DNA of 64,000 nucleotides from an alpha proteobacterium BAL199 (GTDB lineage Bacteria; Pseudomonadota; Alphaproteobacteria; Thalassobaculales; Thalassobaculaceae): assembly GCA_000171835.1 (NCBI GenBank), contig ABHC01000013.1, positions 104,340 to 168,339 of the forward strand, written 5' to 3'. Of this stretch, positions 30,001 to 59,517 are shown piece after piece. Both the position numbers and the translations under genes were made by a program. The notes below the pieces were generated by a model that saw nothing but the letters and a program-made list of their open reading frames with translations, made no database searches and had not been told where the DNA came from. Numbering within the stretch: the first letter of the stretch is position 1; the number at the start of each line of letters is the position of its first letter.

Positions 30001-33000
30001 CCTGACCACCGAGGAGGCTGGGGCGGAGCGGCGCTGGACCACTGCCGCGGACATCCCCGGACCGACCACCGTCGTCGATCTGTTTGAACGGCAAGCCGCC
30101 GCCAAGCCGAATGCCGTGGCGGTGCGCTGCCAGGGACGCCACGTCACCTATCGCACCTTAGACCGCTGGGCCGATCGGATCGCGGCCCGACTGCGTGCGC
30201 GCGCCGACCTGGCGCCCGGCGAGCGGGTCGCGGTCGACCTGCCCCGATCGGAAGCCTTGATCGCGGCGATGTTCGGAATCTGGAAGGCCGGACTGGTCCA
30301 TGTCCCGATCGCTCCGGGCGACCCGGCGGAGCGCAAGGCGTTCCTGATCGCCGACGCCGGATGCAAGGCGGTGATCGGCGGCGACGCGGACAGCATCGTG
30401 CCCCGCATCGATCCGACGAACGACCGCTCCAGGCCCACCGCTCGCGGTGCGGAATGCTCACCCGGCGACGTGGCCTACGTGTTCTACACCTCCGGGTCGA
30501 CCGGCAAGCCCAAGGGCGTGATGATCGAGCACCGCAACCTGGCTGCCTTCGCCCGGATTCTGCACGGGGCTTTCGGGATGCGGGACGGCGACGCGGTGTT
30601 CGCCCTGACCACCGCCACCTTCGACATTTCGATGCTGGAGCTGATCTGCCCGCTGACCCAGGGCTTGCGGGTGACCGTGGCCGACGATGCGACCGTAGCG
30701 GACCCGGCCCTCACCCTCGCCGATATCCGGGACAGCGGGGTGACGGTTCTGCAAGTCACGCCGTCCCGGCTCGCCCTGCTGCTCGCCCAGGATGGCGGGC
30801 TGGGCGCGGTCCGGTTGCTGTTGGTCGGCGGCGAGGCGCTCCCGGCGTACCTGGCCGCCTCCCTCCGCGCTCTGCATGGCCCGGACGGAAAACCGATCGC
30901 GGCGTTCAACGTCTACGGCCCGACCGAAACCACGATCTGGTCCACCGCGGAGGAGATCGGCGACGCGCCCCCCGGCATCGGCTGGGCCCTGCCCGGCGAG
31001 GTGGTGCTGATCCTCTCGCTCGCCGGTCGCCCGCAACCGGTCGGCGTGCCGGGGGAGATAGCGATCGCCGGCGCCGGGGTCGGGCGCGGCTATCTGGCGC
31101 GCGCGGATCTGACGGCGGAGCGGTTCACGGCGGACCCGACTCAGCCGGAGCGCCGGATGTACCGAACCGGCGACCTCGGCCTCCGGCGCGCGGATGGCGG
31201 GATCGAGTTTCTGGGCCGGGTCGACGATCAGGTGAAGCTGCGCGGATTCAGGATCGAGCCGGGCGAGATCGAGGCTGCGCTGACCGGCCACCCCTCGGTG
31301 CATCAGGCCAAGGTCGTCGTCCGCGACATCGCCGGCGCGCCGGAGCTGGTCGCCTATGTGGTGGCGCCGACATTGGACCTTCCGGGCCCCGGCGAGGCGG
31401 ACCTGCGCGCCCGGCTGCACGAAACCCTGCCGCCCCATATGGTGCCCATGGTGATCGTCGCCCTGGACGCCTTGCCGCTGCTACCGTCGGGCAAGATCGA
31501 CCGCAAGGCGTTGCCGAACCCCGAGGTCGCGCCGCCCGCGTCAGCGTCGGCGGCGGCCTTGGAGGGACCGGCGGACACGCTGGAGTCCGGTGTCCTGGCC
31601 CTGTGGCGAACGGTGCTGGCGCGTCCCCATGCCGGGCCGGATGACGATTTCTTCGACGGCGGCGGCCATAGCCTGCGCGCGGCCCAGCTCGCCAACCGGG
31701 TGCGCGAGACGTTCGGCGTCGCGTTCGGCCTGCGCGACGTGTTCCTGTTGCCGACGGCGCGTCGGATGGTGCGGGAGATCGCGCGCCGACGAACCCGGGA
31801 CCTGCCGCCGTTGGCGGCGGTGGCGACTGACGGCGACTACCCCCTGTCCCACGCCCAGCGCCGGCTGTTCGCCCTCGACCGCCTGGACCCGGGGGGCTGC
31901 GCCTACCTGATCGCCGGCGCCTTCCGGATTGCCGGGCCGCTCGATCGGAGCGCCCTGGAGCGGGCGATGGCGTGGCTCGTCGCCCGGCACGAGGCGCTAC
32001 GGACAAGCTTCAGGCTGATCGACGGCGACCCGCGCCAGGTCGTCGAGGCGGCACCGGCATTCACCCTGGGATACAGCGATCTTTCCAACGCCAAGGACCC
32101 CGAGGCGGACGCCGCGGCGATCGTCGGGACCGAGGCCCGGACGCCGATCCGCTCGGACGCCGCCCCGCTGTTTCGCGCGCACCTGCTGCGGGTGGCGCGG
32201 GATCGGCACATCCTCGCCTTCACGCTCCACCACCTGATCGCCGACGGCTGGTCCCTGGGCGTCCTGCTGGAGGATCTGGAGCACGCCTATGAGGCTTTTG
32301 CCAGCGACCATGCGCCGACGCGCCCCGCCCTGGCCCTGCACTACAAGGACTACGCGGCCTGGGAGCGGGTGCTTGCCACGACCGCCGCGCGGGAGCGCAG
32401 CCGCACCTACTGGCACACCCGCCTGGCCGGCCCCCTGCCGGTCCTGACCCTGCCCATGGCCAACGATCGGCCGGCCCGGCGCAGCGACCGGGGCGGCCAG
32501 GTGCCGTTCGCCATTACCTCCGAGCTCGGACGCGCCTTGTCGGAAAAGGGCCGCAAGCAGGGTGCGACCCTGTTCATGATGCTGCTGGCCGCGTCGGCCT
32601 CGTTGTTCCACCGACTGACCGGCGCGCGCGACATGATCCTCGGGTCGGTCACCGGCAACCGCGACCACTCGGATCTGGAGACCATGGTCGGCTGTTTCGT
32701 CAATCCGCTGCCGCTGCGCCTGGCGGTGTCGCCGGACGACACCCTCTCCACCGTGCTGGAGGGCGTGCGGACCGCTTCGCTGGAGGCGCTGGAGCACGGG
32801 ATCTACCCGTTCGACCAGTTGGTGCGCGAACTGGGCGCGGGCCGCGACGCCAGCCGGTCGCCGTTGTTCGATATCGGCCTCACCTGGAATGCCCTGCCCC
32901 ACATGGAACGGGATCGGTTCGCCGGGTTGGCCTTGAGCCCGTTCGGCGACGGCGCGCAGGCGGCGAAATACGATCTGCTGATTGTCGCCGGGCCGGACGG

Positions 33001-33199
33001 TGACGGCATCGCCGGGGTGATCGAATACAGCACGGATCTGTTCCAGGCGGGCGATATCGAGGTTCTGGCTCGCCAGATCACCAGGATCCTGGAACAAGTC
33101 GCCGACGCCGACCCGAGTATCGGCGCCCTTGACCTTGGAACGTCGCCGCAGGGCGATGCGCCCGCCATTACACCGCTGTCGATTGATCTGAACTTTTAG
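9029..33199 (+). CDS. Giant hybrid PKS-NRPS (8056 aa): KS-AT-cMT-ACP-AMT | C-(decayed A)-PCP | C-A-PCP | C-A-PCP | C-A-PCP | C-PCP (no A) | C-A-PCP | C
   Basis: KS DAACASSL/HGTGT. AT GQGSQYRGMG/GHSVGE/AFHS. SAM-MT LEIGAGTGGTS. ACP LGLDSLL. Class-III aminotransferase domain with PLP-lysine YGKMIGGG. Seven C domains with HHxxxDG variants at ~15430, 17875, 21040, 24370, 27570, 29095 and 32230. Four intact A domains with (Y/F)TSGSTG(Q/R/K)PK(G/P), NxYGPTE and (N/S)GK(V/I/L)D motifs. Six PCPs with GG(D/H)S. The 19-nt overlap with the upstream gene was seen directly. Confidence 0.9.
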   Translation: MGQVSVTPPQDQQPDIHPSPTDEVAELEAALERSLRVINHLEAALEQRAGDAGTESHQPVAIVGMSCRFPGGANDPAAFWDLLAGGREARAPMAADRWTGPGAPPLGHFLDRVPYGVDDRVFRLSPEEIRGLDPQQRLLLELAFEAFEDAGLPQGQLEGSRTGVFLGLEKADFIRAGLYSGDPERITPYTATGIAGSAAAGRISYLFDLRGPCLSLDAACASSLVAVDQACASLRRGDCTMALAGAVSLMLAPEPFTALTRLGALSPEGRCKTFSADADGYARGEGGAILVLKPLAQAQADGDRIHGVILGSAVRHGGRSNGLTAPNMGSQEEVIRAALDDARIGPDAVDYLEAHGTGTPLGDPIEMAAVEAVFAASRLEAGSPLAIGSVKTNIGHLETAAGVAGIIKVLLCLRHGMLPPHLHFENPSEHIDWPSLPVTVPTEATAWPSSSPSRRRIAGVSAFGFAGTVAHVVLAGAPDGTDICEPATADTTALPDRCWHLVTVSARSEAALAANLDALAAHVSPDDGLGDDGLGDIAHTANTGRTAFEYRAAAVANAASARPATLPATLRGPDLMKGRSGQADAGQIAFAFTGQGSQYRGMGRDLYATSPVFRDALDRCATLLEPELDRPLIDLLYGPAPDPEVIDRTDYAQPALFSVGYALSALWRSWGIHPAVVMGHSVGEITAAQIAGVFSLEDAIRLIAARGRLVQSLTPAGAMAAVFANADTVADRLKDLDGGVVIAARNAPRNTVIAGTPDAVAHAVEHLRQDGIDARALSVSRAFHSPLLDPAVAPFRDVLESLTYNAPTIPLVTNRTGRLATAKITTAEITTADIMTPDAWCRHLLDPVLFEDGVRAVAEAGIRTVIEIGPAPVLSGLARQVDGSDTAPIWMPSLIAASEGWQQMLSTLGQLYVRGVDVDWPGVDRGRVRRRVDLPTYRFQRNHAEPPAPLPVARSVGALARTTPEGPVSEGPVSEGPAFDSVSRGFQAVTTLGRGLLCHAMERLGLFDRLEAAVAPTVDDLRSDLGIDPSYARLFDELLAILARHGVLALAEGRVVATDIRRHTSPADSIPPADSATVVRDHPDLAAMVRLLEVCLDAYPDVLRDTRKAMEVLFPGGSMALVEAVYQSGDIAGYFNRLVADAVRQAVTEIGGTGGAGILEIGAGTGGTSRTVLAALAERETAALAYHYTDISAGFVRQAEIHLGARYPFTRFQTLDIERDIAAQGCREGGYDVVLASNVLHATHDMAHTLAQAARLVRPGGRLIINEVTRSHEFIGMTFGLTPGWWLYQDAEVRQAGSPVLSLASWRRMLAEAGFATVDTHGLDGDDPDDPVQAVIVAYRDGGSAFAAPQDLDIGGHGGAGHRGALEGRLVALVQRISGITVSDGDTATNLFALGLDSLLLMQIKQGMQEEFGVEVSMGQFYNELSTIGDLVDLLARQVSPAPTAAPGPATGSVAQTVPHVPQPAPATAGSRDAILRVVEQQLELMRQQLALLGGDPGAVALPAMPATVPTAPAPPLAAPHPATFASAPAASAPGASAPAASVQGPIDGALSPAQQRLIDDLVRRYTAKTARSKDAMARARPVLADWIATVGFRPELKEMIYPIVSVASQGSHVTDLDGNDYVDLAMGFGVEFFGHRPPFVVDAVRERLDRGFELATQSDLAEETARMVAELTGVERVTFSNTGTEAVMTAFRLARTVTGRKRIVHFKGAFHGFYDGVMAYGGRTGSTPMVPGILQNQIDDVLVLEYGSDEALRVIEAEADSLAGVLVEPVQSRNPDLQPRDFLHALRRITESHGVALIFDELITGFRVHPGGAQAHFGVTADIVTYGKMIGGGMPISVIAGKARFLDAIDGGDWRYGDGSRPAATMTFFGGTFCRHPLSMAAAHATLRFMADHGPALQERVNARTEALAGRLNALFGDRRIPFRVAWFASQFQIRQAMAGGGGETIQSLELAVFFFLLMERGIYTWERRVCFLSIAHDDGDLDRIVSAVADSLDAMLAAGFFGGRSAPPVALTPGQKDMAFRAAQGTAASTAYAEPLVLDLEGPLDIAALQGALDAVIARHDALRVVRIADDAAEIAPKISVAIRRTLDTSRDAGDWLSALCRQPFDLDAGPLIRAHLLELAPERFRFALVLHHLIADGWSAGVVLQELARIYSALAARAPLPELPAPVSFAAYQAWYADRLTRRRATVRGYWRRQLRDVPPLDLPADVLAPSRTSGRGQRLRREIAGDTTTAIRAAARAHHTSSFAILLGTWTALLFRLSGSRRITVGVASAGQSAMGKDTLVGQCSSLLPLIVEVDPALSWTALLERLTAALGELWDHQDVRPEDVIGDDPDLALPPLRASFNQDRDPGGCRFHGLSAALAPAEIGFVKHALALNAIESDGRMLLDFDYDTDLFDPATVSDWADGYRALLDALLLAPDAPIIADGPAPASGPAGRARTADSPPLGIGADAFDRHVEAWIGAAEIAAGDRLHISDAAASALGADGAAALRTAGATVLPAGAQRQPGDGDILLAREASGMPTSAKMLLVDDGTLLDITLADLLRTRPETRLFVVAQPTGLPVSLGVERVDAAREEWRRHGLRAPSPSLNVDVRDTDGRPVLSGVAGNLHLGPTSTGEAARRRSDGTIELLGPADAIVHHRSHPVRASTVAAILLAHPSVRDVALDPAAASFSVQAAIGDSGVDAQTLRRYLLRHLPVWSVPGRVVVVPQFPAPPETPAETTPEVRADGPQTAEIITLFRHVLGGVDVAADDDFFDLGGDSLAATRLVNQVRTVFGVDLAMRSVFEAPTPALLAARLGDAERSTLAPITAGRRPDRLPLSPAQRRLWFLEQFESTATAYVMTVAVRLNGPLDVSALERALNAVLARHESLRTRFPTTDDEPWQEILPAAAARLTLAPVDTTDAALLPTLAALQATDARFDLANDLPVRAILYRLSADRHVLVLRVHHIAGDEESLRPLAQDLRRAYSDASALTPLSLQVADVALWQRDQTYDDQEAFWVRELGDLPSALALPYDTPPGGAGRHRPAGQVPLRIGAALTRRLSDLAHEERASLFMALQAGLATLLHRYGAGDDIPIGAPSAGRSRRELEDLIGFFVNMIVLRCRLGGRPSFRDLLARVRGCNLAAYANQDAPFDRVVDRLRPLRDGEALALQVVLVLGQGDAGALDLPGIDSALLRIPERDAKFDLSVMLAPTEDGGLAGELVYDAHLFRPETAARLADHLVRILQAAVIAPDEPVARLAFLAPAERQPLVAERTETIRIDPDATVTGLLEAQAAATPEAVALVAADGRAMTYSALHRTAATVAGILRRRGIGRGDVIAVLCRRSPDMVVGILAALKAGATYLPLDPSYPPARLAFIVEDAAPALVLSQSELTEILPSDTEVLLLDTVPEACGSNATDAASPPATPDDAAYIIYTSGSTGQPKGAILPHRAVVNYLVWARDTYRPELGRGAPINTSIGFDATITSLFLPLIAGTAVYLIDEEDEIGALAACLSDHRDFSLVKLTPAHLDILRMTMAPEDLAGMARVLVIGGEALSAATVQAWRDHAPETRLFNEYGPTETTVGCIVHEVGPDTPTSGMVPIGRPIANTRIYLLDAEMQPVPVGVAGEVYIAGAGVADGYLRRPELTAERFLADPFGEPGARMYRSGDLARRDADGRMEYLGRADGQIKLRGHRIEPGEIEAALLAQPSVAQAAVILRKDAVGDAELAAYLVPAAGVEPRATAALQQALSERLPAVAVPSSYIWVDAVPLSPNGKVDRARLARVAVAPRQAAAPDDLPCALTERICAAFAAALEVPHVAPDANFFAIGGHSLLAARLIIRLRREVDDGLSLGDLFANPTAADLAGLLAGREQATPRPGLVPTPADADADADYPVSPGQRRLWALDRMEPGRAVYNMACAFLVDGDIGPARLRGALDALMRRHETLRTGFVAVGAEPRQRVHADCAVPLVVEDLSHWPDPLARAKAVADADARTPFDLATAPLWRVRLLALGGTGDAARSVLVLNMHHSIGDGASVPILMRELSAFYASAGATTTGDGISPLAIQYRDYVAWFETWLKTPTAEEDRAYWVARLSGMGDSLDLPTDRPRGLGTSGRGGQIAREFGSAGRGLLALAVEARTTPLAVLIALVRAVLHRYTGATDITLGTVVSGRDEPGLEDQIGFFVNTLALRDPIDGADRFADVVARSAGTLGEALAHATYPFERIVDALAIGREPGRTPLFDVLVTMEEELPRPVFGSASVSRLGDLAVSRHFDLTFFFRATDDGLALVVEYDGDLFDAWRIAQLCDHLETFAGNAVAAPERPILDLDILRPQERDRLIRGFNQTATDYPRDASITELFRAQAALSPDAPAVREAGGNALTYGMLERRSNRVAHRLVDEAGVAPGDLVGLMATRSCDLIVAQLAILKAGAAFVPIDPDYPRGRIDAMLTAVEIRCLIVQDDAPIAVPDRCRRVPLSALDGEAAEGPDRHPSAEDLAYVMFTSGSTGQPKPVAVPHRAVVRLVRDTNFVALGGDDRLLLTGALSFDATTFEIWGMLLNGGTLVLADSRLILDARDLGRLLAEERITTLWLTSSLFNHMVDQGADLFAPLRTLLIGGERLSPPHVAAVRRRLPALRLLNGYGPTENTTFSLVHPIDAVEDGRDIPIGRPIANSRAYILGPGDRLAPVGVVGEIVVGGDGLARGYLGQDALTAERFVDHPELDGERVYRTGDFGCWLPDGSIAYLGRRDRQIKIRGVRIEIGEVEAALRAQAGVERAAVTTRERAGVPELVAYVTGDLAMDTDAVRRDLHTLLPKAMVPAHVLKIDSLPLDGNGKLDYAALPTPTPATPTPATPTPATPTPATPTPATPTPATPTPATPTPATPTPATPTPTTASESTASPDRAASRAASRTPGNPLETALIALWREVLERDAVTVDDNFFDLGGHSLSAIRLAQRIQETLGMSVAVRDLFAMPTIAGLAAHLLTTMMRERLGTPADQPPTHPDQIHPLPPAEDYPATANQRRLWFLHRLDAGLTAYNIVGAWRLDGAVDTDALHGALSRLVARHEALRTVFSGIDGEPRQRVLDTAPPPLSLETVASDAEVEAARDAELGHVFDFGAPLLRVRLLRWTETASVLLVNCHHLIADGWSMRVLLDELADAYRTLRRGELLREGPAPIQYKDAAAWAAARQRGGEGQADLDYWRETLSGDLAALELPTDFPRPALKSYRGAAVRIGVDAATTADIRALSESKNTSLFCILSSLVNVLLYRYTGQCDIRVGTPVAGRGHPGLDRAVGFFADTVVLRNHLDADDAFNTLLDRMTTTLADALAHQSTPFEHVVAAVGADRDPARSPFFDVMVTLAEAERPLVLDGLRAVAMPLPEITTQFDLTFRFQDLGETLALELSYNTDLFSDARITRMANHLKTLIRAAATDGTQSIAHLPLMAAAEAEQVTRDFAFDRAAVDCSPSLAALFEAQADRTPSRPAVVGDDGSVDYRALDHAANGWAAALLDHGLRPEEPVGLALPSGSVALIAAMLGILKAGGAYVPLDPRHPADRLRAMIADAGCRLVLTAETRDASGLADSTLIRAPITPRADRPARIDGGDRLAYILFTSGSTGRPKGVMVEQRAVVNLIHGLNRAIYDPLATTGPLQVAQFASVVFDASVQQIFPALLAGHTLHPVDGALRRDAPALLRWFRARGINVADGTPTLLDMLLEAGLDRTPLPDLRHLILGGEPLSSAALRRLRENPSLAGLAVTNAYGPTETTVDATLFELRGDAPLPAVIPIGTPLPNVEALILDANGEPVPIGVAGELHIGGAGLARGYVAASPADNARFIPHPHRDGERLYRTGDTARWLEDGAIEFLGRRDGQIKIRGHRIEVGDVEAALKRAPGIRHCAVGVQPGGPRPALTAWIVADREIPTADLRRHLAGHLPDAMIPARFQVLPALPLTPSGKIDRKALAAMPLAAMPVTTMPPARQDGAPEVPESALEAGIAKIWEEVLGRSGIGRTLNFFEIGGDSVGVLRVLSRLEHRLGIDVPVDTFYRAPTIADLAAAGAATSIVTAHLQTAHPQTAAATETLAPCSALTPAQHRLWVIAEMDPDNGGYAMPAAFQLDGMLDVAALRRALAVLIERHEPLRTVFPMIEGEPRQKVLPPAPLTLDPELVADLDAARAAMVAEIARPFDLAHGPLLRCRLFRLSERRHLLLVCLHHIIGDGQSLAVMAGELGHAYDALTAGREPALTPLPLTYRAAASAIAARRQDPRAKADRAYWLDRFADPVPPLDLPTDFPRSAETGYDGGVHVVPVDADVAAGLREMAHRSGGTLFAVVLALVARLLQRVSGARDLVIGIPVAGRFNPDFEPLVGLFAETCPVRITGDPDEDFEALLTRVGATVRGAIGHDRFSFDQLVEDLDVQSQAGRSALYDVMVAGQVGEAVPLSLSGLTVDAVPLGPAGSQVDLTVNVLDHGGGLELSIVYRRRLFRAERIAAFADDLIALTRAVGSLDRGTASVESRLLALWREVLGRDGFGIDDTFLSVGGHSLKAARLVRRIWSEFGASVKLRDVFAHPTVRSLAALIEGTEPVPSTAEAPPETRSLGEAVAPASAAQTRLWVLAQMAPDPRVYAMVTALELTGPLNVAALDRAFQALVARHEALRTVFETDGDGVLRQRIQPSDACGFRLEVVDGAAEGPDVPDFNLATGPLFQVRLERRAADRHRLRIAQHHTIGDGWSWTVLARDLSVLYRAALDKSEPDLPALAMQYRHVEVQRSRWLDGPGGAAARRFWLETLSGDIPRVNLPADFPRPKLQSFDGALHAFTLPPRTAERLKAFAEDRGATLFMGLLAAVKALIHRYTGLEDVVVATPVAGRDEAALDDQVGLYMNTLALRTRFSAERGFAALLDALRDGAADAFDHQGYPFDRLVEDLDLPRDLSRNPVFDVLVALQNHAPAEVDLARVTARAEPDAGGIAKVDLSFYFTESETGIGAWVEYNTGLLRPERIRRLEGHFHTLLDSALADPEAALGQLDILTTEEAGAERRWTTAADIPGPTTVVDLFERQAAAKPNAVAVRCQGRHVTYRTLDRWADRIAARLRARADLAPGERVAVDLPRSEALIAAMFGIWKAGLVHVPIAPGDPAERKAFLIADAGCKAVIGGDADSIVPRIDPTNDRSRPTARGAECSPGDVAYVFYTSGSTGKPKGVMIEHRNLAAFARILHGAFGMRDGDAVFALTTATFDISMLELICPLTQGLRVTVADDATVADPALTLADIRDSGVTVLQVTPSRLALLLAQDGGLGAVRLLLVGGEALPAYLAASLRALHGPDGKPIAAFNVYGPTETTIWSTAEEIGDAPPGIGWALPGEVVLILSLAGRPQPVGVPGEIAIAGAGVGRGYLARADLTAERFTADPTQPERRMYRTGDLGLRRADGGIEFLGRVDDQVKLRGFRIEPGEIEAALTGHPSVHQAKVVVRDIAGAPELVAYVVAPTLDLPGPGEADLRARLHETLPPHMVPMVIVALDALPLLPSGKIDRKALPNPEVAPPASASAAALEGPADTLESGVLALWRTVLARPHAGPDDDFFDGGGHSLRAAQLANRVRETFGVAFGLRDVFLLPTARRMVREIARRRTRDLPPLAAVATDGDYPLSHAQRRLFALDRLDPGGCAYLIAGAFRIAGPLDRSALERAMAWLVARHEALRTSFRLIDGDPRQVVEAAPAFTLGYSDLSNAKDPEADAAAIVGTEARTPIRSDAAPLFRAHLLRVARDRHILAFTLHHLIADGWSLGVLLEDLEHAYEAFASDHAPTRPALALHYKDYAAWERVLATTAARERSRTYWHTRLAGPLPVLTLPMANDRPARRSDRGGQVPFAITSELGRALSEKGRKQGATLFMMLLAASASLFHRLTGARDMILGSVTGNRDHSDLETMVGCFVNPLPLRLAVSPDDTLSTVLEGVRTASLEALEHGIYPFDQLVRELGAGRDASRSPLFDIGLTWNALPHMERDRFAGLALSPFGDGAQAAKYDLLIVAGPDGDGIAGVIEYSTDLFQAGDIEVLARQITRILEQVADADPSIGALDLGTSPQGDAPAITPLSIDLNF
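13690..15000 (+). other. PLP-dependent class III aminotransferase (AMT) domain embedded in the assembly line; converts β-keto to β-amino
   Basis: Resembles glutamate-1-semialdehyde aminotransferase-like domains (VTFSNTGTEAVMTAFRLAR; YGKMIGGGMPISV). The position after KS-AT-cMT-ACP matches MycA/McyE-type β-amino acid modules. Confidence 0.8.
16330..17230 (+). other. Decayed adenylation-domain remnant (~300 aa, core motifs lost) between C1 and PCP1
   Basis: Recognisable A7-A9 relics (GRPVLSGVAGNLHLG; DGTIELLGPADAIVHHRSHPVRASTVAAILLAHPSV; HLPVWSVP). There is no SGSTGxPKG, no YGPTE and no A10 lysine. Confidence 0.55.
23476..23625 (+). repeat. Perfect 15-bp tandem repeat (ccccacaccggccac) x9 plus 1 degenerate copy, encoding a (PTPAT)n linker between A2 and PCP3
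   Basis: Seen directly; in frame with the giant ORF. Confidence 0.9.
24671..24760 (+). other. ~90-bp AT-rich (about 33% GC) in-frame patch inside C-domain 4, made of rare codons
   Basis: GC was counted by hand against ~70% background. The frame is preserved and encodes the conserved C-domain segment SESKNTSLFCILSSLVNVLLYRYTGQ. Confidence 0.7.
27180..28660 (+). other. C-PCP module lacking any adenylation domain (C5 HHIIGDGQS, then PCP GGHSLK)
   Basis: The C-domain end (~28420) abuts the PCP (~28450) with no room for an A domain. Confidence 0.65.
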
Positions 33200-33211: not shown

Positions 33212-33950
33212 ATGAGCAGACTGACGACCTCCCCCGCGCGCGCCGACCTTGCCCGCTATACCGGACACGGGTTCGATGCCCACCGCGCGTTCTGGCAGGA
33301 CCGGACCGCCGCCTGCGTGGACCCGGTGGATCTCGGGGCTGATGGAACCTCCCCGGCAACCCACGCGCATCCGTTCTCCGCGGAGGCCGCCGGGACCCTA
33401 GCGCGGATTTCCGGCGGCCAGGAGCTCGGCCGGCTCGTGGTGGTCACGGCGGCAGTCGCGCGGGTGTTGGCCGCGTGGGGCGGGGGACAGTCGATCCTGG
33501 TCGACACACCACCGCTCCCGACCTCCGCCCATGCCGGCGAACCGGTGGCGATGGTGCTGCCGCTGATGCTCACCGGCACCGTGCGTGATCTGCTGACCGC
33601 GACCCGCGCGGTGATCGCCGATGCCTATGGTCATCAGGACTTCCCGATCCGCCGCTTGTCCGACCCCGCCTTGCCCGAAGCCCGGATGATGATCGCCAGC
33701 CCGGCTCTCCACGACGTGCCGGCGGACAACGAAGCGCGGGACCTGACGCTCACGCTGGACCTGACCCTCACGCTGGAGCAGACCGGCCTGCGGCTGCGCC
33801 ACCGGCTGGCCCCCTGGCGCGCCGCCGCCTTCGCCGCCCAGATCGACCGGGCCGTGGCCGGTTTCGCGGAGACCGACCGCCCGCTCGCCGACATCGACCT
33901 GCTGTCGGCCGGGGAACAGGCCACGGCCCTGGCGTTCGGACGGGGCCCGG
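33212..33950 (+). other. N-truncated condensation-domain half (C*), directly following the complete terminal C domain of the preceding protein
   Basis: Alignment by eye to C-domain C-terminal subdomain motifs; the N-terminal lobe carrying the catalytic histidine motif is missing. Confidence 0.5.
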
Positions 33951-36900
33951 ACGTCGAGATGGCGGAGGAAACCCTTTGGGGGCTGTTCCGGACGGCGGTC
34001 CGGGATCACGGTGAGCGGGTGGCGCTGCGCGATCGCGGGGTCGGTCTGACCTATGGCGACCTGTCCCGTCGGGCCGAAGGACTGGCGCAGGTGCTGCGAC
34101 AGCGTCACGGCGTGAAGACCGGCGATCTGGTGGGAGTGATCGCGGCGCGAAACGCCGAGTGGATCATCGCCCTGCTCGCGATCCTGCGGGCCGGGGCGGC
34201 CTACATGCCGCTGGGAGCCGATCAGCCGGAAGCGCGCCTTGCCGCGGTGGTCGACAGCGCGCGTCCGGCGCTGGTGCTGTCCTGCACGCCTGCGGCACCG
34301 CCTCTCGCCGGGGCGTTGGCGGTCTCGATGCTGCTCGACGCATCCGACACACTGGCGGACGCGGCGATCGGCGACGAGGGGCCGGCGCCGGGCGATCTCG
34401 CCTATGTGCTGCACACCTCCGGCTCCACCGGCCGGCCGAAGGGCGTGATGATCGAGCATGGCGGTTTCGCCACCATGATCCGCCACCAGATCGCCACCTT
34501 CACCATCACGCCCGAGGATCGGGTGGTTCAGCTCGCGGCGGCGACGTTCGATGCCTCCATGTCCGAGATCTTCATGGCCCTGGCGCAGGGCGGCACCCTG
34601 GTGCTTGTGGAGGACGACCAGATCGCCGACACCGCCCGCTTTACCGCCCATCTGGCGGCGGAGGCGGTGACGCTGATGACGATGACGCCGGCGCACCTGG
34701 CCGCCCTTGATCGCCACCCGATGCCGACCGTGAGAATCTTGATCACCGCCGGGGACGCCGCCGATCCGGACACCGTGCGCCACTACGCCCGCACCAAGTT
34801 GGTCTTCAACGCCTACGGTCCGACCGAAGTGTCGGTCTGCGCGTCGATCCACCGGGCCTCAAGCGAGCGCGCGGGCGGCCCAGTACCGACCGGACCGGTG
34901 CCGATCGGCCAGACCACCGCCAACAGCCGGATCTACCTGCTCGACCGGTTCGGCCAGCCGGTGCTGCCAGAACTGCCCGGTGAGATCGTGTTTGCCGGTC
35001 CCGGCGTGGCGCGCGGCTACCTCCAGGCCGATGGCGACGGGAACGCGAGCCCGTTCCTGACCGATCCGTTCGCAACACCGCAACGCCCGGCCCGCGCCTA
35101 TCGCACCGGGGACCTGGGCCGGTTCGACGCGGACGGGACCCTGATCTTCCTCGGGCGGGTCGACCGCCAGATCAAGGTGCGCGGCTATCGGATCGAGCCG
35201 GGAGAGATCGAGGCGACCCTGGCGCGGCATCCCCGGGTGCGGGACGCCCATGTGATGACGGTCGCCGCCCCCGGCGGTCAGACCGAGCTGGTGGCCTATG
35301 CCAGCACGCGCGAGGCGGTCGAGCTTTGGCCGTCGATCGCCGAGTTCTTCGTCTACGACGACGTCGCCTATGGCGCGATGGCCAGCGACACCCGGCGCAA
35401 CGCCAGCTATCAGGCGGCGTTCGAGCGCGCGCTCGCCGGCAAGGTGGTGCTGGAGATCGGTCCCGGCGCCCAGGCGGTGCTGTCGCGGATGGCGATCGCC
35501 GCGGGGGCGCGCAAGGTCTACGCGGTGGAGATCTCCGAACATGTGGCCAGTCAGGCGCGGGACCGGTTGGCGGCGGAGGGTTTGGCGGGTCGGGTCGAGG
35601 TGATCGTCGGCGACATCCGCACGGTCGACCTGCCCGAACCGGCCGACATCTGCATTTCCGAGATCGTCGGCTCGATCGGCGGCTCGGAAGGATCGGCGGT
35701 GCTGATCGAGGCCTCAAAGCGGTTGCTGCGCGAACCCACAGCCCAGATTCCGGCGCGCAGCGTGACCCGCATCGCCGGCGTGTCCCTGTCCGATCTCGAC
35801 CCCGATCTGGCGTTCTCCGATTTGGCGGCAGGCTATGTGGAGCGGATCTTCGAGGCCGAGGGCCGGTCGTTCGACCTGCGCCTGTGCCTGAAGAACCTGC
35901 CCGACGGCGCGGTCGTCACCACATCCGACGTGTTCGAGGACCTGAACTACCGCGCACCGCTGGACTCGGCGAGCCGGCACACCATCCGCCTGACGGTCGA
36001 CGCCGACGGGACGGTGGACGGGTTCCTGGTCTGGCTGCACCTGATCGTCGATGCCGAACACCCGGAGGAGGCGGTGGATATCCTCGACTCCAAGGGGAGC
36101 TGGTTGCCAGTCTTCCTGCCGCTTGACGTCCCGCTCACGGCGCTGACGGCCGGTGACACGATCGTCGCCGAGATCGACAGATCGCTCTGCGCCAACCGGC
36201 TTAACCCGGATTTTCGGATCACCGGCAGCGTCACCCGCGGCGATACGGTGATCGCCGCCTTCACCTGCGATGCCCCCCATGTGGCGGATGGGTTTCGCGG
36301 CAACCGCTTCCACCGGGCGGCATTCGATGCGCACGGCCGGCCCCGCCGCGCAGACCCGCCGGGCGAGGCGTTGCGCCAACACCTGGAACAGACCCTGCCC
36401 GCCTACATGGTGCCGGCCCATCTGATGCTGGTCGACCGGATGCCGTTAACCGCGAGCGGCAAGATCGACCGGGCCGCCCTGCCGGCGCCGGCCCGCGGAA
36501 GCAAAGCCGCCGCCATCGCCCCACGCGACGACCGCGAAGCCGCCCTTGCCGAGGTGTTCGCCCAGGTCCTTGGGCTGGACGGGCTGGGGGTGGAGGACGA
36601 CTTCTTTGCCGCCGGCGGGGATTCGATCCGCGCGATCCAGATCGCCGCCCGGTTGGGCGAGCGGGGGATCAGCCTCGGTTCGGCGGCGATCCTGGAGCAC
36701 CGCACCGTCGCCGCCCTCGCCCCCCTGTCGCGAAGCCGCGCCGACGCCCCCCACAAGGGTCCGGTCACCGGCCCCTACCCGCTCAGCCCGATCCAGGCCC
36801 GGTTCTTCAACCGCTTCCAGCGCGAGCCCCACCACTACAACCAGGCCCTGTTGCTGCGGCCGTCGGAGCGGCTGGAGCCGGAGGCGGTGGCCGGCGCGCT

Positions 36901-38137
36901 CACCGCCCTGGTCGCGCATCACGACGCCCTGCGCTCCCGCTTCAAGGCCGATGTCGGCACCGGGATCCTGGCCGAGATCGCCGCGCCGGGGGACACTCCC
37001 GAAATCCAGGTGATCGACTGCACATCCAACACGCTGGAGGAACACTGCGAGGATCTGCAGCGCAGTCTGGACCTGTCCGAGGGTCCGCTGATCCGATCGG
37101 CGATCCTGCGCCTGCCCGATGGCGACCGGCTGCTGGTGGTGATCCACCATCTGGTGGTCGACTGGGTGTCCTGGCGCATCCTGATCGCCGACCTGCAACG
37201 CGCCTATGATCAGCGGCGGGCCGGCGACCCGATCACCCTGCCGCCGCGCACCGACTCCTTCAAGGACTGGGCCGAGGCCGTGACCGGGACGGCGGACAGC
37301 CCCGACCTGGTGCGGGAGAAGGCCTGGTGGGCGGCACTATCGCAGGGAGACGGCCTGCGACTGCCGTTCGCCCACATCCCACCGGACTCCGCCGATCTCG
37401 TGGCCGACGCGCGCACCGCCACGGTCACCGCGCCCGCCGACCTCACCACCGCCCTGCTCGGCCCCGCCAACTCGGCCTATGCGACCGAGACCGTGGATCT
37501 GCTGCTGGCCGGCCTGGCCCGCGCGGCGCGGGGGCTCGCCGGCGCCGGACGGCTGGTGGTGGTGCTGGAAGGCCACGGCCGCGAAGCCGAGCTCTCCACC
37601 CTCGACGTGAGCCGGACCGTCGGCTGGTTCACCACCCTGTACCCGGTCGCCTTTGACTTGGACGACACCGGTGACGCCGGCCGTCAGGTCCGAACGGTCA
37701 AGGACAGCCTGCGCGCCGTTCCCCGGCGGGGCGTGAGCTATCTGGCACTCCTGGACCGGCCCGACGGGATCTCCGAGGCGCCGGCGCAGATCGCCTTCAA
37801 CTACCTCGGCCGGCTGGAGTTGGCGGAGCAGCGGGCGGACGGTATCGGCTTCGAGCTTGCGCCCGAGGAGGCCGGTCCGGCGATCAGTCCCCAGGCTCGG
37901 AGACCGGTACCGCTGGAGATGTTGGCCTCGGTCACGGACGGCCGCCTGCATGTGACCCTGACCTACAACCAACGCCATGCGAATCAGGGCGATATAACAG
38001 CGTTCTTGGACGCCTATCTGTCGGCACTCGCGGACATCGGCGCCCATTGCCTGACCACCAGGGGAGTGACCACGGCGTCCGACCTGAGCTGGTCCGGCCT
38101 GGCCGACGAAGACCTCGACACCCTGTTCGATCAGTAG
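33212..38137 (+). CDS. NRPS: N-truncated C (C-terminal subdomain only)-A(interrupted by MT)-PCP-E
   Basis: Begins 12 nt after the giant gene's stop. The first ~245 aa match only the acceptor-side half of a C domain, with no HHxxxDG. A domain shows AYVLHTSGSTGRPKG...NAYGPTE...LPAYMVP...SGKIDR. PCP GGDSIR. E-domain signature HHLVVDWVSW. Confidence 0.9.
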   Translation: MSRLTTSPARADLARYTGHGFDAHRAFWQDRTAACVDPVDLGADGTSPATHAHPFSAEAAGTLARISGGQELGRLVVVTAAVARVLAAWGGGQSILVDTPPLPTSAHAGEPVAMVLPLMLTGTVRDLLTATRAVIADAYGHQDFPIRRLSDPALPEARMMIASPALHDVPADNEARDLTLTLDLTLTLEQTGLRLRHRLAPWRAAAFAAQIDRAVAGFAETDRPLADIDLLSAGEQATALAFGRGPDVEMAEETLWGLFRTAVRDHGERVALRDRGVGLTYGDLSRRAEGLAQVLRQRHGVKTGDLVGVIAARNAEWIIALLAILRAGAAYMPLGADQPEARLAAVVDSARPALVLSCTPAAPPLAGALAVSMLLDASDTLADAAIGDEGPAPGDLAYVLHTSGSTGRPKGVMIEHGGFATMIRHQIATFTITPEDRVVQLAAATFDASMSEIFMALAQGGTLVLVEDDQIADTARFTAHLAAEAVTLMTMTPAHLAALDRHPMPTVRILITAGDAADPDTVRHYARTKLVFNAYGPTEVSVCASIHRASSERAGGPVPTGPVPIGQTTANSRIYLLDRFGQPVLPELPGEIVFAGPGVARGYLQADGDGNASPFLTDPFATPQRPARAYRTGDLGRFDADGTLIFLGRVDRQIKVRGYRIEPGEIEATLARHPRVRDAHVMTVAAPGGQTELVAYASTREAVELWPSIAEFFVYDDVAYGAMASDTRRNASYQAAFERALAGKVVLEIGPGAQAVLSRMAIAAGARKVYAVEISEHVASQARDRLAAEGLAGRVEVIVGDIRTVDLPEPADICISEIVGSIGGSEGSAVLIEASKRLLREPTAQIPARSVTRIAGVSLSDLDPDLAFSDLAAGYVERIFEAEGRSFDLRLCLKNLPDGAVVTTSDVFEDLNYRAPLDSASRHTIRLTVDADGTVDGFLVWLHLIVDAEHPEEAVDILDSKGSWLPVFLPLDVPLTALTAGDTIVAEIDRSLCANRLNPDFRITGSVTRGDTVIAAFTCDAPHVADGFRGNRFHRAAFDAHGRPRRADPPGEALRQHLEQTLPAYMVPAHLMLVDRMPLTASGKIDRAALPAPARGSKAAAIAPRDDREAALAEVFAQVLGLDGLGVEDDFFAAGGDSIRAIQIAARLGERGISLGSAAILEHRTVAALAPLSRSRADAPHKGPVTGPYPLSPIQARFFNRFQREPHHYNQALLLRPSERLEPEAVAGALTALVAHHDALRSRFKADVGTGILAEIAAPGDTPEIQVIDCTSNTLEEHCEDLQRSLDLSEGPLIRSAILRLPDGDRLLVVIHHLVVDWVSWRILIADLQRAYDQRRAGDPITLPPRTDSFKDWAEAVTGTADSPDLVREKAWWAALSQGDGLRLPFAHIPPDSADLVADARTATVTAPADLTTALLGPANSAYATETVDLLLAGLARAARGLAGAGRLVVVLEGHGREAELSTLDVSRTVGWFTTLYPVAFDLDDTGDAGRQVRTVKDSLRAVPRRGVSYLALLDRPDGISEAPAQIAFNYLGRLELAEQRADGIGFELAPEEAGPAISPQARRPVPLEMLASVTDGRLHVTLTYNQRHANQGDITAFLDAYLSALADIGAHCLTTRGVTTASDLSWSGLADEDLDTLFDQ
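35318..36380 (+). other. ~355-aa methyltransferase domain inserted between A8 and A9 motifs of A5; class-I SAM MT with PRMT-like motifs
   Basis: VVLEIGPGAQAVLSRMAIAAGARKVYAVE matches PRMT motif I/post-I (VLDVGSGTGIL...GARKVIGIE). A SEI..GSEGS double-E-like loop is present. The insertion site (after GYRIEPGEIE and before LPAYMVP) is the canonical interrupted-A-domain position. Confidence 0.6.
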
Positions 38138-38147: not shown

Positions 38148-41100
38148 ATGCTGAACCGGCAGAACCTCAAGGACCTCTATCCCCTGTCGCCGATGCAGGA
38201 GGGCATGCTGTTCCATGCCCTGCGGGAGCCGGAGTCGACCGCCTATTTCGAGCAGCTCAGCTTTCGCATGGCGCCGACCCCATCGCGCACGCACATCTCG
38301 GCGGTCTGGGATCTGCTGTTCCGCCGCCACGACATCCTGCGCACCGTCTTCATCCACACCAACGCCGCCCAACCGCTTCAGGCGGTGCTCAAGGACGCCC
38401 CGCCGGCCCTGCATTTCGAGGATCTGCGCGGCCTGTCCGACGACGCGCGCGAGCGGTTCCTCGCCGACTGGAAGGAATCCGACCGCCTCGCCGGGTTCGA
38501 CCTGACCAAGGCACCGCCGGTGCGGATCGCCTGCTTCGATCTGGGCGACGACGGGTGCGAGATCGTCTGGAGCCATCATCACATCCTGTTGGACGGCTGG
38601 TGCCTGGGGATCCTGCAGGGTGAATTCCTGGAAGTGCATCGGGCGCTGAGCGCGGGCGAGCAGCCGGCGCTGCCCCCGACCACCCCGTTCAGCCACTACA
38701 TCAAATGGCTGGGCGCGCGGGAACCGGGGGCCGCCCAAGACTACTGGAGCACCTATCTGAGCGGCTACGAGGAACTGGCCACGCTGGTGCCGCTGGCGGA
38801 GGGCGGCGCCCACCACCCGGCCGAGCACAGCTTCACCCTGGACGCGGAAACGGCGCAGCGCCTTCGGGCCATATCGGTCGACGCCGGCGTGACCCCGAGC
38901 ACACTGTACCACGCGCTCTGGGGACTGCTGCTGGGCCGCTCACTGGACCGCGACGACGTGGTCTTCGGCTCCGTGATCGCCAACCGTCCCGAAGAGATTC
39001 CAGGCATCGAGGGCATGCTGGGGTTGTTCATCAACGCGGTCCCGGTGCGCACCCGCTGGCGCGAGGCCGACAGCTTCCGCGATCTGCTTACCCACCTTCA
39101 CCAGGACATGCTCGCGCGTCGGGCTCACGAGTACCTGCCGCTGGCCGAGATCCAGGCCGGCTCCGAGGTGAACCGGGCGCTGTTCGATCACGTGGTGCTG
39201 GTTCAAAGCTATCCCCTGGACCAGCAGATGGTCGCCAACGCGACGGTCGAAATCGCGCAGGTCGAGCTGTTCGAGCACACCCACTACCCGTTGGCGGTGA
39301 GCATCACCCTTGGCGAGACGCCGAGCCTTCAGTTGGGCTATGACCGACGCCACCTGACCGCCGACGCGGTTCGCCGGATGGAACGGCAGTTCCGGGACCT
39401 GGTCGCCCTGGTGGCCGAGCAGCCGAACCGGCCGATCGACACCTTGCCGCTGGCCATCGCCGCACCGGCGACCGTGCGCCTGGCAGAGGCCGCACCCGCC
39501 GAGACAACCCTGGTCGCCCTGTTCGAGACCGCCGTCCGGGACCACGGCGATCGGGTGGCGGTGAGCTGCGGCGGGCGCGACCTGACCTACCGCGCGCTCG
39601 ACGCGGCCGCCAACGAGATCGCTTGGCGGCTGCTCGATCACACGGCGTTGGGACCGGACGACCGGGTCGCCCTGATCGCCCGGCGCAGCGAATTGCTGCC
39701 GGCGGCGATGCTGGGGATCGCCAAGGCGGGGGCCGCCTATGTGCCGATAGATCCCGACTACCCGGCCGACCGCATCGCTTTCCGGATACGGGACAGCGGG
39801 TGCCGCATGGTCCTGCGCCTGCCGGCGCCGGGGGAGAATCTGCCGCCAGCCTGCCGGGACGCGGTGCCGGCCGATCTGCCGGTTCTGGAGGTGTGCGGCG
39901 ATCTGGACGGACGCGACGCCCCTCCGCCGTCGCCGCCGTCCCCCGGCGATCTGGTCTATGTGGCCTACACCTCCGGCTCCACCGGGCGCCCGAAGGGCGT
40001 GATGATCGAACACCGCAACGTCGCCGCGTTCAGCGCGACCCTGGACGCCGTGTTCGGGCTTGGCCAGCGCGACACGATCCTGGCCCTGACCACCATCACC
40101 TTCGACATCTCCGTCCTTGAGCTTCTGTGCAGCCTGACGCGGGGTCTGCGGGTGGTGATCGCGTCCGACGCGGTCGCCGCCGATCCGGACCTGATCCTGG
40201 CGGAAATCGCCGCGCGCGGTGTCGACGTGCTTCAGGCCACACCGTCGCGGCTGCGCAATCTGTTGGACGCGGGCGGGGCCGAGCCTCTAAACCGGGTGCG
40301 GGTCGCCCTGGTCGGCGGCGAGAAGCTGCCGCCGGCGCTCGCGACCCTGCTGGCCGGCTATCCGGGAATGACCGCCTTCAACGTCTACGGCCCGACCGAG
40401 ACGACGATCTGGTCCACCGCCCAGCAACTGGCCACCGCCCCTCTGTCCATCGGCCGCCCGTTGCCCGGCGAGACCGTCATCCTGCTCTCGCGCAACGGCC
40501 GCCCCTGCCCGGTCGGGATGGTCGGCGAGATCTGTATCGGCGGGGTCGGCCTCGGCCGGGGATATCTCGGGCGCGACGACCTCACGGCGGAGCGCTACAT
40601 CACCCATCTGCTGGCACCCGGGGAGCGGTTGTATCGGACCGGGGACCTTGGCCGGTGGCGCGAGGACGGGGAGCTTGAGGTTCTGGGGCGCGGCGACGAT
40701 CAGGTGAAGGTGCGCGGCCACCGGATCGAACCGGGCGAGATCGAAGCGGCACTCGCGGCCTGCCCCGGCGTGCGCCAGGCCGTGGTCGCAACCCGCGAGC
40801 GCAACGGCGAGCTGGAGCTGGTCGCCTGGGCGGCCGGGGAGAGCCTGGACCCGGCGCCCCTGCGCGACGCCTTGATGCGACAACTCCCCGGCTACATGGT
40901 GCCCGGCCAGATTTCCGCGCTTGAGGCGATGCCGCTGCTGCCAAGCGGCAAGGTCGACCGTCACCGGCTGCCGGAGCCGGAGATCGGCCCTGCGCCGAGC
41001 GCCGCCCGCCCGCGCGACGCGCTGGAGACGCACGTCGCCGACCTGTTCGCCGACGTGCTTGAGGGCCCGGCGCCCGGCCTGTTCGACGATTTCTTCGCGC

Positions 41101-50295: not shown

Positions 50296-50463
50296 ATGAT
50301 CAATTTCGCCCTGGTCGGTTATGTCTGCGTGGCGCTCCTGCTCGCCTTTCTCGGCCGCCGCACGCGGCTGGGACCGATCCTGATCTTCCTGATCTCGATC
50401 CTTCTCACCCCGGTATTCTCGATGATCTATCTGATCGTTACCCGCTTCGAATTCCGTAAATGA
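50296..50463 (+). CDS. Unannotated 55-aa two-TM membrane peptide (MINFALVGYVCVALLLAFLGRRTRLGPILIFLISILLTPVFSMIYLIVTRFEFRK), translationally coupled to the ABC exporter
   Basis: GGGAG Shine-Dalgarno 7 nt upstream of the ATG. The stop TGA (50461-50463) overlaps the ABC transporter ATG (50460) as ATGA. Below the 60-aa cutoff of the track. Confidence 0.45.
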   Translation: MINFALVGYVCVALLLAFLGRRTRLGPILIFLISILLTPVFSMIYLIVTRFEFRK

Positions 50464-53550: not shown

Positions 53551-53886
53551 TTATTCCGCCGCCTGCTTCACACCGGCATCCAAGGCCGCCAGCACCGCGG
53601 GCGGAGACATCGGCAGGTCGCACATCCGCAAGCCGAGCGCGTTGTTCACCGCATTCGCGACCGCCGCCAGACCGGGCACCAACGGCACCTCGCCGACGCC
53701 ACGCACACCCTGGGGGTGCTTGGGGTCCGGGATCTCCAGGATGATCGTGTCCAGCATCGGCAGGTCCGAACAGACCGGCATGCGGTAGTCCAGGAAGCCC
53801 GGATTATCCACCCGGCCCTTCTTGTCGTAGATGTACTCCTCGTTCAGCGCCCAGCCGATGCCCTGGGCGATACCGCCTAGCAGCTG
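53551..53886 (-). pseudogene. C-terminal fragment of a molybdopterin-dependent hydroxylase large subunit (xanthine dehydrogenase/CoxL family), truncated by an IS5-family insertion
   Basis: LLGGIAQGIGWALNEE...GVGEVPLVPGLAAVANAVNNALG matches the family C-terminus. The reading frame is broken at the IS junction. Confidence 0.6.
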
Positions 53887-55238: not shown

Positions 55239-55408
55239 CTGACCCTCGACATAGCTCGGGTGGATTGCCTGGCCGGCGTCCTGAACGCAGGTGTAGCGCA
55301 GGACCCGCGCGATCCCGAGGTCGACATCCACCTCCACGTCGCAGACATGGGTGGCGAACCCGCCCTCGGCCCCGGTGGTGTTCAATTGGGTACCGGCACC
55401 GATCGGCC
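55239..55408 (-). pseudogene. Internal fragment of the same Mo-hydroxylase large-subunit gene, between the IS5 and IS21 insertions
   Basis: GGFATHVCDVEVDVDLGIARVLRYTCVQDAGQAIHPSYVEGQ matches the conserved ...VEVD...NP..VEGQ segment and is contiguous in sequence with the 53551-53886 fragment once the IS is removed. Confidence 0.55.
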
Positions 55409-55560
55409 TGTGCGGATTCCGACGATGCCGGCCACCTATTCCGATTTGAAGGCGGCCACCTATTCCGATCCGATGCCGGCCGGCGTTCCGATTTGATGCC
55501 GGCCACCTGAGGCACGCTCCTCCGGGTCGTGGGGGATGATGTTCGGGCGGTGTCGGACGG

Positions 55561-56316: not shown

Positions 56317-56330
56317 GTTCGGGATCTCCG

Positions 56331-57866: not shown

Positions 57867-57949
57867 CCCGCCCTCTCCTCGTCACTGGACGAGGCGAGCG
57901 TGATGCCCGAGGTGCTGACCCAGAAGGGCGCGCCGGGACCGTCAGCCAG

Positions 57950-58068
57950 GTGGCCGGATAAATCTCGGAACGGTGGCCGGCTTCATGTCGGAATGGTAGC
58001 CGGCTTCAAATCGGAACCCCGGCCGGCTTCACGTCGGAATACCCGGCCGGCTTGTGTCGGAATCCGCA
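57950..58068. repeat. IS21 right-end multimeric terminal repeats (4-5 copies of ~23-bp TCGGAANNNNGGCCGGCTTCANN); inverted copies at the left end 55411-55500
   Basis: Seen directly; matches the known multi-repeat IstA-binding termini of IS21-family elements. Confidence 0.55.
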
Positions 58069-58086
58069 GGCCTGGAGTTGAGCCAG

Positions 58087-58206
58087 ACAATGGGCGGGTC
58101 TTCGGGCGTCTTGCTGGCGATCTTCTTCTCCGCCGCCGGGGACGCGGCCACGAACGGGGAGGATATGACGGGGGCGCTGATGCACGGCCTCGACCGCATC
58201 ATTTAG
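58087..58206 (+). pseudogene. dhaL: Fragment of a dihydroxyacetone kinase DhaL-like (DAK2 domain) gene, cut at the 5' side by IS21 and at the 3' side by IS630
   Basis: GGSSGVLLAIFFSAAGDAA resembles the DhaL GGxSGPLxxTFF motif. It continues, in the same frame, into the 59262-59501 fragment. Confidence 0.4.
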
Positions 58207-58296
58207 AGCACTTTCTCAGCTGATTGAATCGTAGGGGATTCCCGGACGGCTCGATTTCTGATTCAAGATACAGGCTGGTGAAGGAGGCCAGCCTGT

Positions 58297-59245: not shown

Positions 59246-59261
59246 TCGGAAAATGCTCTAG

Positions 59262-59501: not shown

Positions 59502-59517
59502 CGGCCCGTCGCGGCGC

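Follow-up and report, generated by a model that had tools for sequence, protein, structure and literature searches.

The window analysed here, a 64,000-nucleotide stretch of the genome of the alpha proteobacterium BAL199 (contig ABHC01000013.1, positions 104,340 to 168,339 of the forward strand), carries a gene for a nonribosomal peptide synthetase (NRPS), which we call orfC. The adenylation (A) domain of its module is interrupted by a methyltransferase (MT) domain with the fold of the protein arginine methyltransferases (PRMTs). The module begins with the remnant of a condensation (C) domain, continues with the two parts of the A domain and the insert between them, and closes with a thiolation (T), or carrier, domain and an epimerisation (E) domain (Table 1). 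Pfam recognises AMP-binding at residues 259-604, AMP-binding_C at 1052-1084, PP-binding at 1111-1170 and Condensation at 1187-1615 of the protein. Upstream, orfC is preceded by a polyketide synthase (PKS)/NRPS gene, orfB, and downstream it is followed by a further NRPS gene, orfD.

Table 1. Features of orfC and of the cluster around it, in window coordinates. aa, amino acids; ORF, open reading frame; SAM, S-adenosylmethionine; M, methyltransferase domain embedded in an A domain; ACP, acyl carrier protein; KS, ketosynthase; AT, acyltransferase; KR, ketoreductase; TE, thioesterase; PPTase, phosphopantetheinyl transferase.
Feature	Position	Strand	Details
orfC, NRPS gene	33212..38137	+	1641 aa: truncated C lobe, A with MT insert, T, E; from ORF list and translation
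C-domain remnant	33212..33985	+	~258 aa (aa 1-258); C-terminal lobe only, without HHxxxDG
A domain, N-terminal part	33986..35308	+	Motifs A1-A8, up to boundary LVAYAST (aa 693-699)
PRMT-fold methyltransferase insert, putative type III M domain	~35309..36358	+	~350 aa; from alignment with uninterrupted A domains
Type III motif i, SAM site	35447..35476	+	VLEIGPGAQA, aa 746-755; pattern V(V/L)(E/D)(I/V)GxGxxA
Type III motif ii	35609..35689, extended to second Glu	+	GDIRTVDLPEPADICISEIVGSI, aa 800-822; pattern GDδxxδx(L/I)PEx(A/V)(D/E)xC(V/I)SEI(V/I/F)GxI
Type III motif iii	35846..35881	+	IFEAEGRSFDLR, aa 879-890; pattern (I/V)Fx6FDLR
Type III motif iv	36101..36124	+	WLPVFLPL, aa 964-971; pattern WLPV(F/Y)(F/L)Pδ; THW-loop position
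A domain, C-terminal part	36359..36511	+	A9 LPAYMVP, A10 SGKIDR
Thiolation (carrier) domain	36527..36736	+	GGDS, aa 1135-1138
Epimerisation domain	36770..38056	+	aa 1187-1615, HHLVVDWVSW aa 1312-1321; Pfam Condensation; aligns with E domain of inferred CrpC (see text)
Sfp-type PPTase	1513-2487		
orfA	2229-9047		Fatty-acyl-AMP-ligase-like A, ACP, KS, AT, KR, ACP
orfB	9029-33199		8056 aa: KS, AT, C-methyltransferase, ACP, class III aminotransferase, then NRPS modules
Complete C domain, orfB C-terminus	31787..33136	+	HHLIADGWS; orfB stop 33199, 12 nt upstream of orfC start
orfD	38148-49655		C-A-T, C-A-T, C-A-T-E-TE
First C domain of orfD	38163..39452	+	Type following an E domain (D-residue acceptor); Pfam Condensation 299 bits
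ABC transporter	50460-52100		

Motif positions and alignment place the interruption between A8 and A9, where the preliminary description of this DNA, made from its letters, had also put it. Motif A8 (GRVDRQIKVRGYRIEPGEIE) occupies residues 648-667, A9 (LPAYMVP) residues 1062-1068 and A10 (SGKIDR) residues 1082-1087. When aligned with three uninterrupted A domains of the window, the insert starts right after LVAYAST and ends near residue 1049, thus spanning residues ~700-1049; the limits first given for it (35318-36380, residues 703-1056) were essentially right.

The PRMT likeness of the insert is far beyond chance. Its best Pfam family is PF05185 (PRMT5), whose score of 34.2 bits exceeds the cut-off of 22.9; the remaining ones are the generic Methyltransf_25 and Methyltransf_11. 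All 60 matches listed by phmmer against the PDB are PRMTs, with PRMT6 at the top (5e-15), followed by PRMT7, CARM1, PRMT9, PRMT5 and PRMT1. A family profile, built from a 32-sequence alignment, matched PRMT6 at 5.6e-37 and CARM1 at 3e-35 over roughly 240-280 profile positions. The same alignment was fed to AlphaFold2, which returned a model of the insert with a mean predicted local distance difference test score (pLDDT) of 92.4 and a predicted template modelling score (pTM) of 0.90. Searched against the PDB with Foldseek, this model had PRMT cores as all 50 of its listed matches (E~1e-23, ~345 aligned columns, TM 0.65-0.74), and these matched the insert along its Rossmann part as well as its C-terminal beta-barrel.

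The sequence motifs agree with the fold. We found a PRMT-like pre-motif I (FFVYDDVAYGAMASDTRRNASY; pattern FFVYDD..Y..M..D..RN..Y), the motif I and post-I that had been quoted before (VVLEIGPGAQAV and KVYAVE), and a double-E loop, SEIVGSIGGSE, whose glutamates E817 and E826 have an E-x8-E spacing equal to that in SEWMGYFLLRE of the PRMT1-like protein P0036. Both glutamates are present in all 35 relatives that we dissected, namely 33 loci from a pattern scan of GTDB species representatives together with a Tistrella and a Nostoc locus, and SEIVGxIGGxEG is conserved in nearly all of them. The equivalent of the PRMT THW loop is GSWLPV, in which, aligned by eye, the Trp is retained and Ser stands in place of the His; the corresponding loops read THWGQQAFY in P0036, THWGRTLFPL in P0034 and HCWLPV in the inferred CrpC discussed below. 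The PRMT-like motif I/post-I and double-E loop of the preliminary description are present, and the fold is backed by Pfam, the PDB searches and the model. Of the families proposed there for comparison, PF06325 (PrmA, 13.3 bits) and PF08242 (Methyltransf_12, 15.1 bits) fell far below their cut-offs, and PF05175 gave no match.

With PRMT1, PRMT6, CARM1 and PRMT5 the insert has in common the two-part fold of Rossmann domain and beta-barrel, as well as pre-motif I, motif I, post-I, the E-x8-E loop and the Trp of the THW loop, at an identity of 18-24% in structural alignment. It differs from these enzymes in sitting in a loop of an A domain, in its expected substrate, which would be the phenol of a carrier-bound tyrosine instead of a protein arginine, and in the THW His, which becomes Ser or Cys in the family of the insert; this family also adds the motifs FDLR and WLPV(F/Y). 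The insert should not be filed as a PRMT.

A class of such domains has been catalogued. In the classification of Lundy, Mori and Garneau-Tsodikova (2020), the interrupted A domains of bacteria fall into seven families with six types of M domain, among which type III, Ms(O,Tyr,a8-a9), occurs in two settings: in family 2b, represented by ThxA2 module 6, and in family 5b, where a type III and a type I domain stand back to back, for example in DidJ and VatN (PMC8341866). Four motifs and a size of 350 +/- 10 aa define type III, which lies between a8 and a9; its boundary reads L(V/A/I)(A/G)(Y/F)xxx, and its SAM motif, GxGxxA, is missing the third glycine (PMC8341866). We ran the published motifs as regular expressions on the window protein, and four of the four type III motifs matched orfC exactly (Table 1). 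The boundary LVAYAST fits the type III consensus too, and the ~350 aa of the insert agree with the published size. By contrast, none of the four type I motifs tested, (D/L)FxGWxS(S/N)Y, δxE(I/L)GxGxG, NS(V/I)δQYFP and NE(L/M)x(K/R/Q)(F/Y/H)RY, was found in orfC. Nor did orfC contain any of six type II motifs, among them DVGx(N/H)xG(L/M)F(S/T)L and FT(Y/F)YPxx(S/T)x(L/M)SG.

Judged by its published description, family 2b, with ThxA2 module 6 as its representative, has the same insertion site, insert size, boundary and motifs i-iv as orfC, and the A domain of orfC is predicted to be of its Tyr type. Nothing diagnostic sets orfC apart from family 2b; it is a new sequence, at most 68% identical to anything found, in an undescribed lipopeptide cluster. 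At a probability of roughly 85%, we thus assign the insert to the type III M domains, as a predicted PRMT-fold, SAM-dependent O-methyltransferase placed between A8 and A9 of a tyrosine-activating A domain of family 2b. The type II domains of KtzH and ColG, which O-methylate Ser/Thr, and the type I domain of TioS, which methylates the backbone nitrogen, sit at the same A8/A9 site and follow the same logic, in that a carrier-bound amino acid is methylated, but they differ in their motif sets. A KtzH-like type II O-methyltransferase was considered for the insert and is ruled out by the absence of all six motifs and by size (~350 against 290 +/- 13 aa), so that KtzH, to which the preliminary description had compared the insert, is a different kind of domain. 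The insert is also less unusual than that description implied: it is an ordinary new member of a catalogued, common class, and the resemblance to arginine methyltransferases has been printed before, in 2023, for an embedded Tyr O-methyltransferase, LynB3 (LynB3-OMT; PMC10127204). PRMTs go unmentioned in the 2020 classification paper (PMC8341866).

Two relatives link the domain to products of described structure. A tblastn search of PLSDB plasmids with the insert gave nine records. One match, on plasmid pTM3 of Tistrella mobilis KA081020-065, is 46.9% identical over 95% of the insert (E 3e-67) and lies in an unannotated ORF of 2163 aa that encodes an A domain, a PRMT-like MT, a second MT matching Methyltransf_12 at 50.7 bits, motifs A9/A10 and a T domain. 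DidJ, the didemnin synthetase assigned to N,O-dimethyl-Tyr, carries two MTs back to back in one A domain (PMC8341866), and from this architecture we infer that the pTM3 ORF is DidJ. Its PRMT-like MT and its nearly identical specificity code (DASTLAAVC) resemble those of orfC; the differences are a type I N-methyltransferase (N-MT) right after the O-methyltransferase, the lack of a detected E domain and a product residue that is N,O-dimethyl-L-Tyr, whereas the orfC module combines one MT with an E domain.

The second relative, on pNsp_c of Nostoc sp. ATCC 53789, is 41% identical to the insert (E 5e-68) and belongs to an NRPS of 1943 aa, whose neighbours are a type I PKS, an NRPS with an SDR-type (ketoreductase-like) annotation, a P450, a TauD/TfdA dioxygenase and PanD. 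From the order of the crp genes we infer this NRPS to be CrpC, part of the correspondence in gene order being presumed. Unit B of cryptophycin is 3-chloro-O-methyl-D-tyrosine (PMC6835634). The alignment of the orfC protein with the inferred CrpC starts at CrpC residue 250 and stays collinear up to the C-terminus, at 33% overall identity, and both have the order A(MT)-T-E and the same expected residue, O-methyl-D-Tyr. They differ in that CrpC has a complete N-terminal C domain, where orfC keeps the C-terminal lobe and the protein before it closes with a full C domain; in the chlorination of Tyr in cryptophycin, no halogenase having been detected among the ORFs scanned in the window; and in the code, which is DASTIAGIGK in the inferred CrpC.

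The ten residues of the specificity code of the orfC A domain were extracted by hand with motifs A4, A5 and A10 as anchors, and a script confirmed the extraction; the code reads DASTIAAVCK. Ten relatives (L005-7, L011, L014, L017, L029, L032, L036 and L037) have the identical code, and eight of nine positions agree with the inferred DidJ. We take codes of the form DAST(I/V/L)AAVCK to be Tyr codes. A literature search for the strings DASTIAAVCK and DASTIAAVC found nothing, and the Tyr assignment is therefore drawn from the comparison with the inferred DidJ and CrpC. Exactly the same code recurs in the third module of orfD, where the A domain (45843-47360, residues ~2566-3071) is uninterrupted and leads into T-E-TE. 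One methylated and one unmethylated D-Tyr thus seem to be built in by this assembly line.

The module of orfC indeed ends in an E domain, as had been noted before. Its motif HHLVVDWVSW (37145-37174) carries a Trp where most E domains carry Gly, the inferred CrpC reading HHLAVDGVSW; the Trp is common to the Acidisphaera, Rhodopila, Roseomonas and Ruegeria relatives, and G, S, A, K or V are found elsewhere. When compared with the C domain that opens the inferred CrpD, the first C domain of orfD reaches 273 bits and all other C domains of the window 60-103 bits; this CrpD domain comes after the E domain of CrpC. The score supports a C domain that accepts a D-residue, and hence a functional E domain in orfC.

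At the other end of the module, a Pfam scan of residues 1-258 gave no match. The remnant weakly matches residues 268-443 of the TycC C domain in the PDB (2jgp, E 1.8e-4) and aligns to residues 250-530 of the inferred CrpC. It is also present, at 48% identity, in the orfC ortholog of Acidisphaera sp. S103 (L005:3910-8793), a protein of 1627 aa separated from the preceding ORF by a 12-nt gap, as in the window. Given this identity, the split C-domain arrangement is conserved and not a sequencing error.

The domain order, the fold, the family membership, the Tyr-type code and the type of the C domain that follows, all shown above, allow a pathway to be proposed. The A domain would adenylate L-Tyr and tether it to its own module's T domain, the embedded M domain would use SAM to methylate the tyrosine, now bound to the carrier, at its phenolic oxygen, and the E domain would then epimerise the residue. 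The terminal C domain of orfB would deliver the upstream peptide in trans, and the peptide with its D-configured O-methyl-Tyr would be passed on to the D-residue-accepting C domain that opens orfD. The suggested order of steps follows other interrupted A domains, which activate and load first and methylate afterwards (PMC8341866), and the predicted methylation at oxygen follows the pathway products of CrpC, DidJ, ThxA2 and VatN. The N- or side-chain-methylated D-residue of the preliminary description can accordingly be sharpened to a predicted side-chain O-methyl-D-tyrosine. For the catalytic step, PRMTs offer a starting point: their two double-E glutamates hold the guanidinium group. The conserved glutamates of the insert might instead position, hydrogen-bond or deprotonate the phenol.

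Several points weigh against this assignment. The Tyr-like nature of the A domain is read from its code, and the names DidJ and CrpC are our own readings, not annotations of the records. Biochemical or structural characterisation of any type III M domain was not found in the literature searched, so that O-methylation is deduced from product structures, not from an assay. With its THW His replaced, the insert has an active site that differs from the one in PRMTs. The C domain of orfC itself is only a remnant, which makes condensation in trans a conjecture. Finally, some interrupted A domains require an MbtH-like partner, and a crude regular-expression scan of all six frames detected none in the window.

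How far could the M domain depart from simple O-methylation of a phenol? Type III M domains retain nearly all of the catalytic apparatus of PRMTs, with pre-motif I, the E-x8-E loop and the Trp of the THW loop. It is improbable that it does something else, by acting on a nitrogen nucleophile or on a Tyr analogue supplied in trans, or, alternatively, that its double-E loop embodies an undescribed conversion of an arginine-binding site into a phenolate-activating site.

Also improbable is a catalytically dead insert, retained as a structural relic in a module that incorporates plain D-Tyr. The missing third Gly of GxGxG (GPGAQA in orfC) would be in line with such a loss of function, which has been proposed for some MT-like inserts of siderophore synthetases. 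However, GxGxxA is the norm of this family, with members linked to O-methylated products (PMC8341866). Relatives from different phyla, at 40-67% overall identity, all preserve the motif I glycines, the acidic residue that follows beta-2 (YAVE), GD, the double-E loop, FDLR and WLPV. This conservation points to selection acting on the active site and makes activity likely. The insert is not needed merely for folding either, since the A domain of orfD module 3 has the same code and is uninterrupted.

We consider it very unlikely that the insert is a true arginine methyltransferase, modifying a guanidino or other nitrogen on an Arg-like residue of the module or of the growing peptide. The full PRMT fold, the strictly conserved E-x8-E loop and the PRMT-like pre-motif I are what such an enzyme would be expected to have, but the code of orfC is of the Tyr type, in common with the inferred DidJ and the uninterrupted orfD A domain, the homologous domains occur in pathways to O-methyl-Tyr and not methyl-Arg, and the THW histidine is replaced. 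In our judgement, none of the A-domain codes derived in the window looks Arg-like.

Least probable of all is an ordinary TioS-like type I N-MT that would yield N-methyl-D-Tyr: type I domains have the same A8/A9 position and LVAY boundary and are likewise class I SAM enzymes, yet orfC has none of the type I motifs tested, BLASTP against the type I N-MT of the inferred DidJ found no significant similarity (E 0.23), Methyltransf_12 reaches 15 bits in the insert against 50.7 in that N-MT, no TioS-like chain occurs among the PDB matches listed, and type I and PRMT-like MTs are not redundant, because DidJ carries both side by side for N,O-dimethyl-Tyr. The preliminary description had already held the insert to resemble PRMTs more than the usual NRPS N-MT, a view that stands, with no standard N-MT family emerging as the top profile match.

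The type III O-methyltransferase reading of the insert also bears on the product of the surrounding cluster, whose first two large genes, orfA and orfB, overlap by 19 nt (9029-9047). The combination of PKS and aminotransferase at its head resembles the logic by which iturin and puwainaphycin obtain β-amino fatty acids. Besides DASTIAAVCK, the A domains of the window have the codes DATKVGEVGK, DAFWLGGTFK, DAQDIGAVDK, DILQLGVIWK (twice) and DVHCGGLVEK, the first four of which we take to specify Asn, Val, a Gln-like residue and Gly, respectively. A β-amino-fatty-acyl peptide that contains D-Tyr(OMe) and has D-Tyr at its C-terminus is the probable product; the cluster (1513-52100) was not matched to any described compound.

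Two regions of orfB depart from the usual module plan. The first NRPS module (~16295-17230, residues ~2423-2734) has ~310 aa between C and T; only in the last ~100 of these is there a match, to the small subdomain at the C-terminal end of A domains (LgrA and others; E 9e-10), and by its sequence this module appears to be without an A core. Around 27130-30000 (residues ~6035-6991) the order is C-T-C, an A-less module in which Pfam finds two Condensation stretches and one PP-binding match. Downstream of the cluster, mobile elements and fragments occur in 53551-63323, where we noted an ORF at 53551-55155 that retains only the tail of a molybdopterin-binding domain, and, all on the minus strand, an IS21-type pair (istB at 55561-56316 and a transposase at 56331-57866), a ShlB/FhaC-type two-partner-secretion transporter (59518-61761) and a Mutator-family transposase (62046-63323).

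Relatives of the insert are found widely. Thirty-six loci came out of the pattern scan of GTDB species representatives, from Alphaproteobacteria, other Proteobacteria (Burkholderiales and Arenicella), Cyanobacteria, Acidobacteriota, Chloroflexota, Planctomycetota and others, and the order A(MT)-T-E occurs in 22 of the 35 dissected relatives. The nearest MT relatives, in Acidisphaera, Rhodopila and Roseomonas, are 64-67% identical. When 1.84 billion cluster representatives were searched exhaustively with phmmer, 550 clusters (50% identity) were recovered at E<=1e-30, and most of the best 150 matches lie inside proteins of 1000-7000 aa; a word-indexed homolog search returned mostly short fragments. 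Among the GTDB species representatives, no copy exceeds 67% identity in the MT domain. The exact 1641-aa orfC protein is encoded on 17 contigs, which belong to several independent metagenome assemblies in ENA; its source thus seems widespread among sequenced samples yet missing, or masked, in the reference genomes.

Free-standing relatives exist as well. Four from Nostocales (P0004, P0008, P0011 and P0012; ~425-440 aa) consist of a TubC-type N-terminal docking domain and the MT, and stand-alone proteins of ~375 aa occur in Streptomyces, Nocardia and Paractinoplanes (P0025, P0032 and plasmid matches H3-H9), the actinomycete proteins retaining SEI(I/V)GxIGGSEG and WLPVF. These free-standing forms may be trans-acting versions of the embedded domain.

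For the organism, the practical consequence is that the orfC module is to be annotated as incorporating O-methyl-D-tyrosine, not an N-methyl residue, which helps to predict the hybrid PKS/NRPS lipopeptide made by this cluster. For the family, M domains that O-methylate Tyr have a true PRMT fold and an intact double-E loop and are thereby a convenient bacterial system in which a PRMT active site would have been retargeted from a guanidino nitrogen to a phenolic oxygen. This question of retargeting is not special to the orfC locus and belongs to the whole catalogued family.

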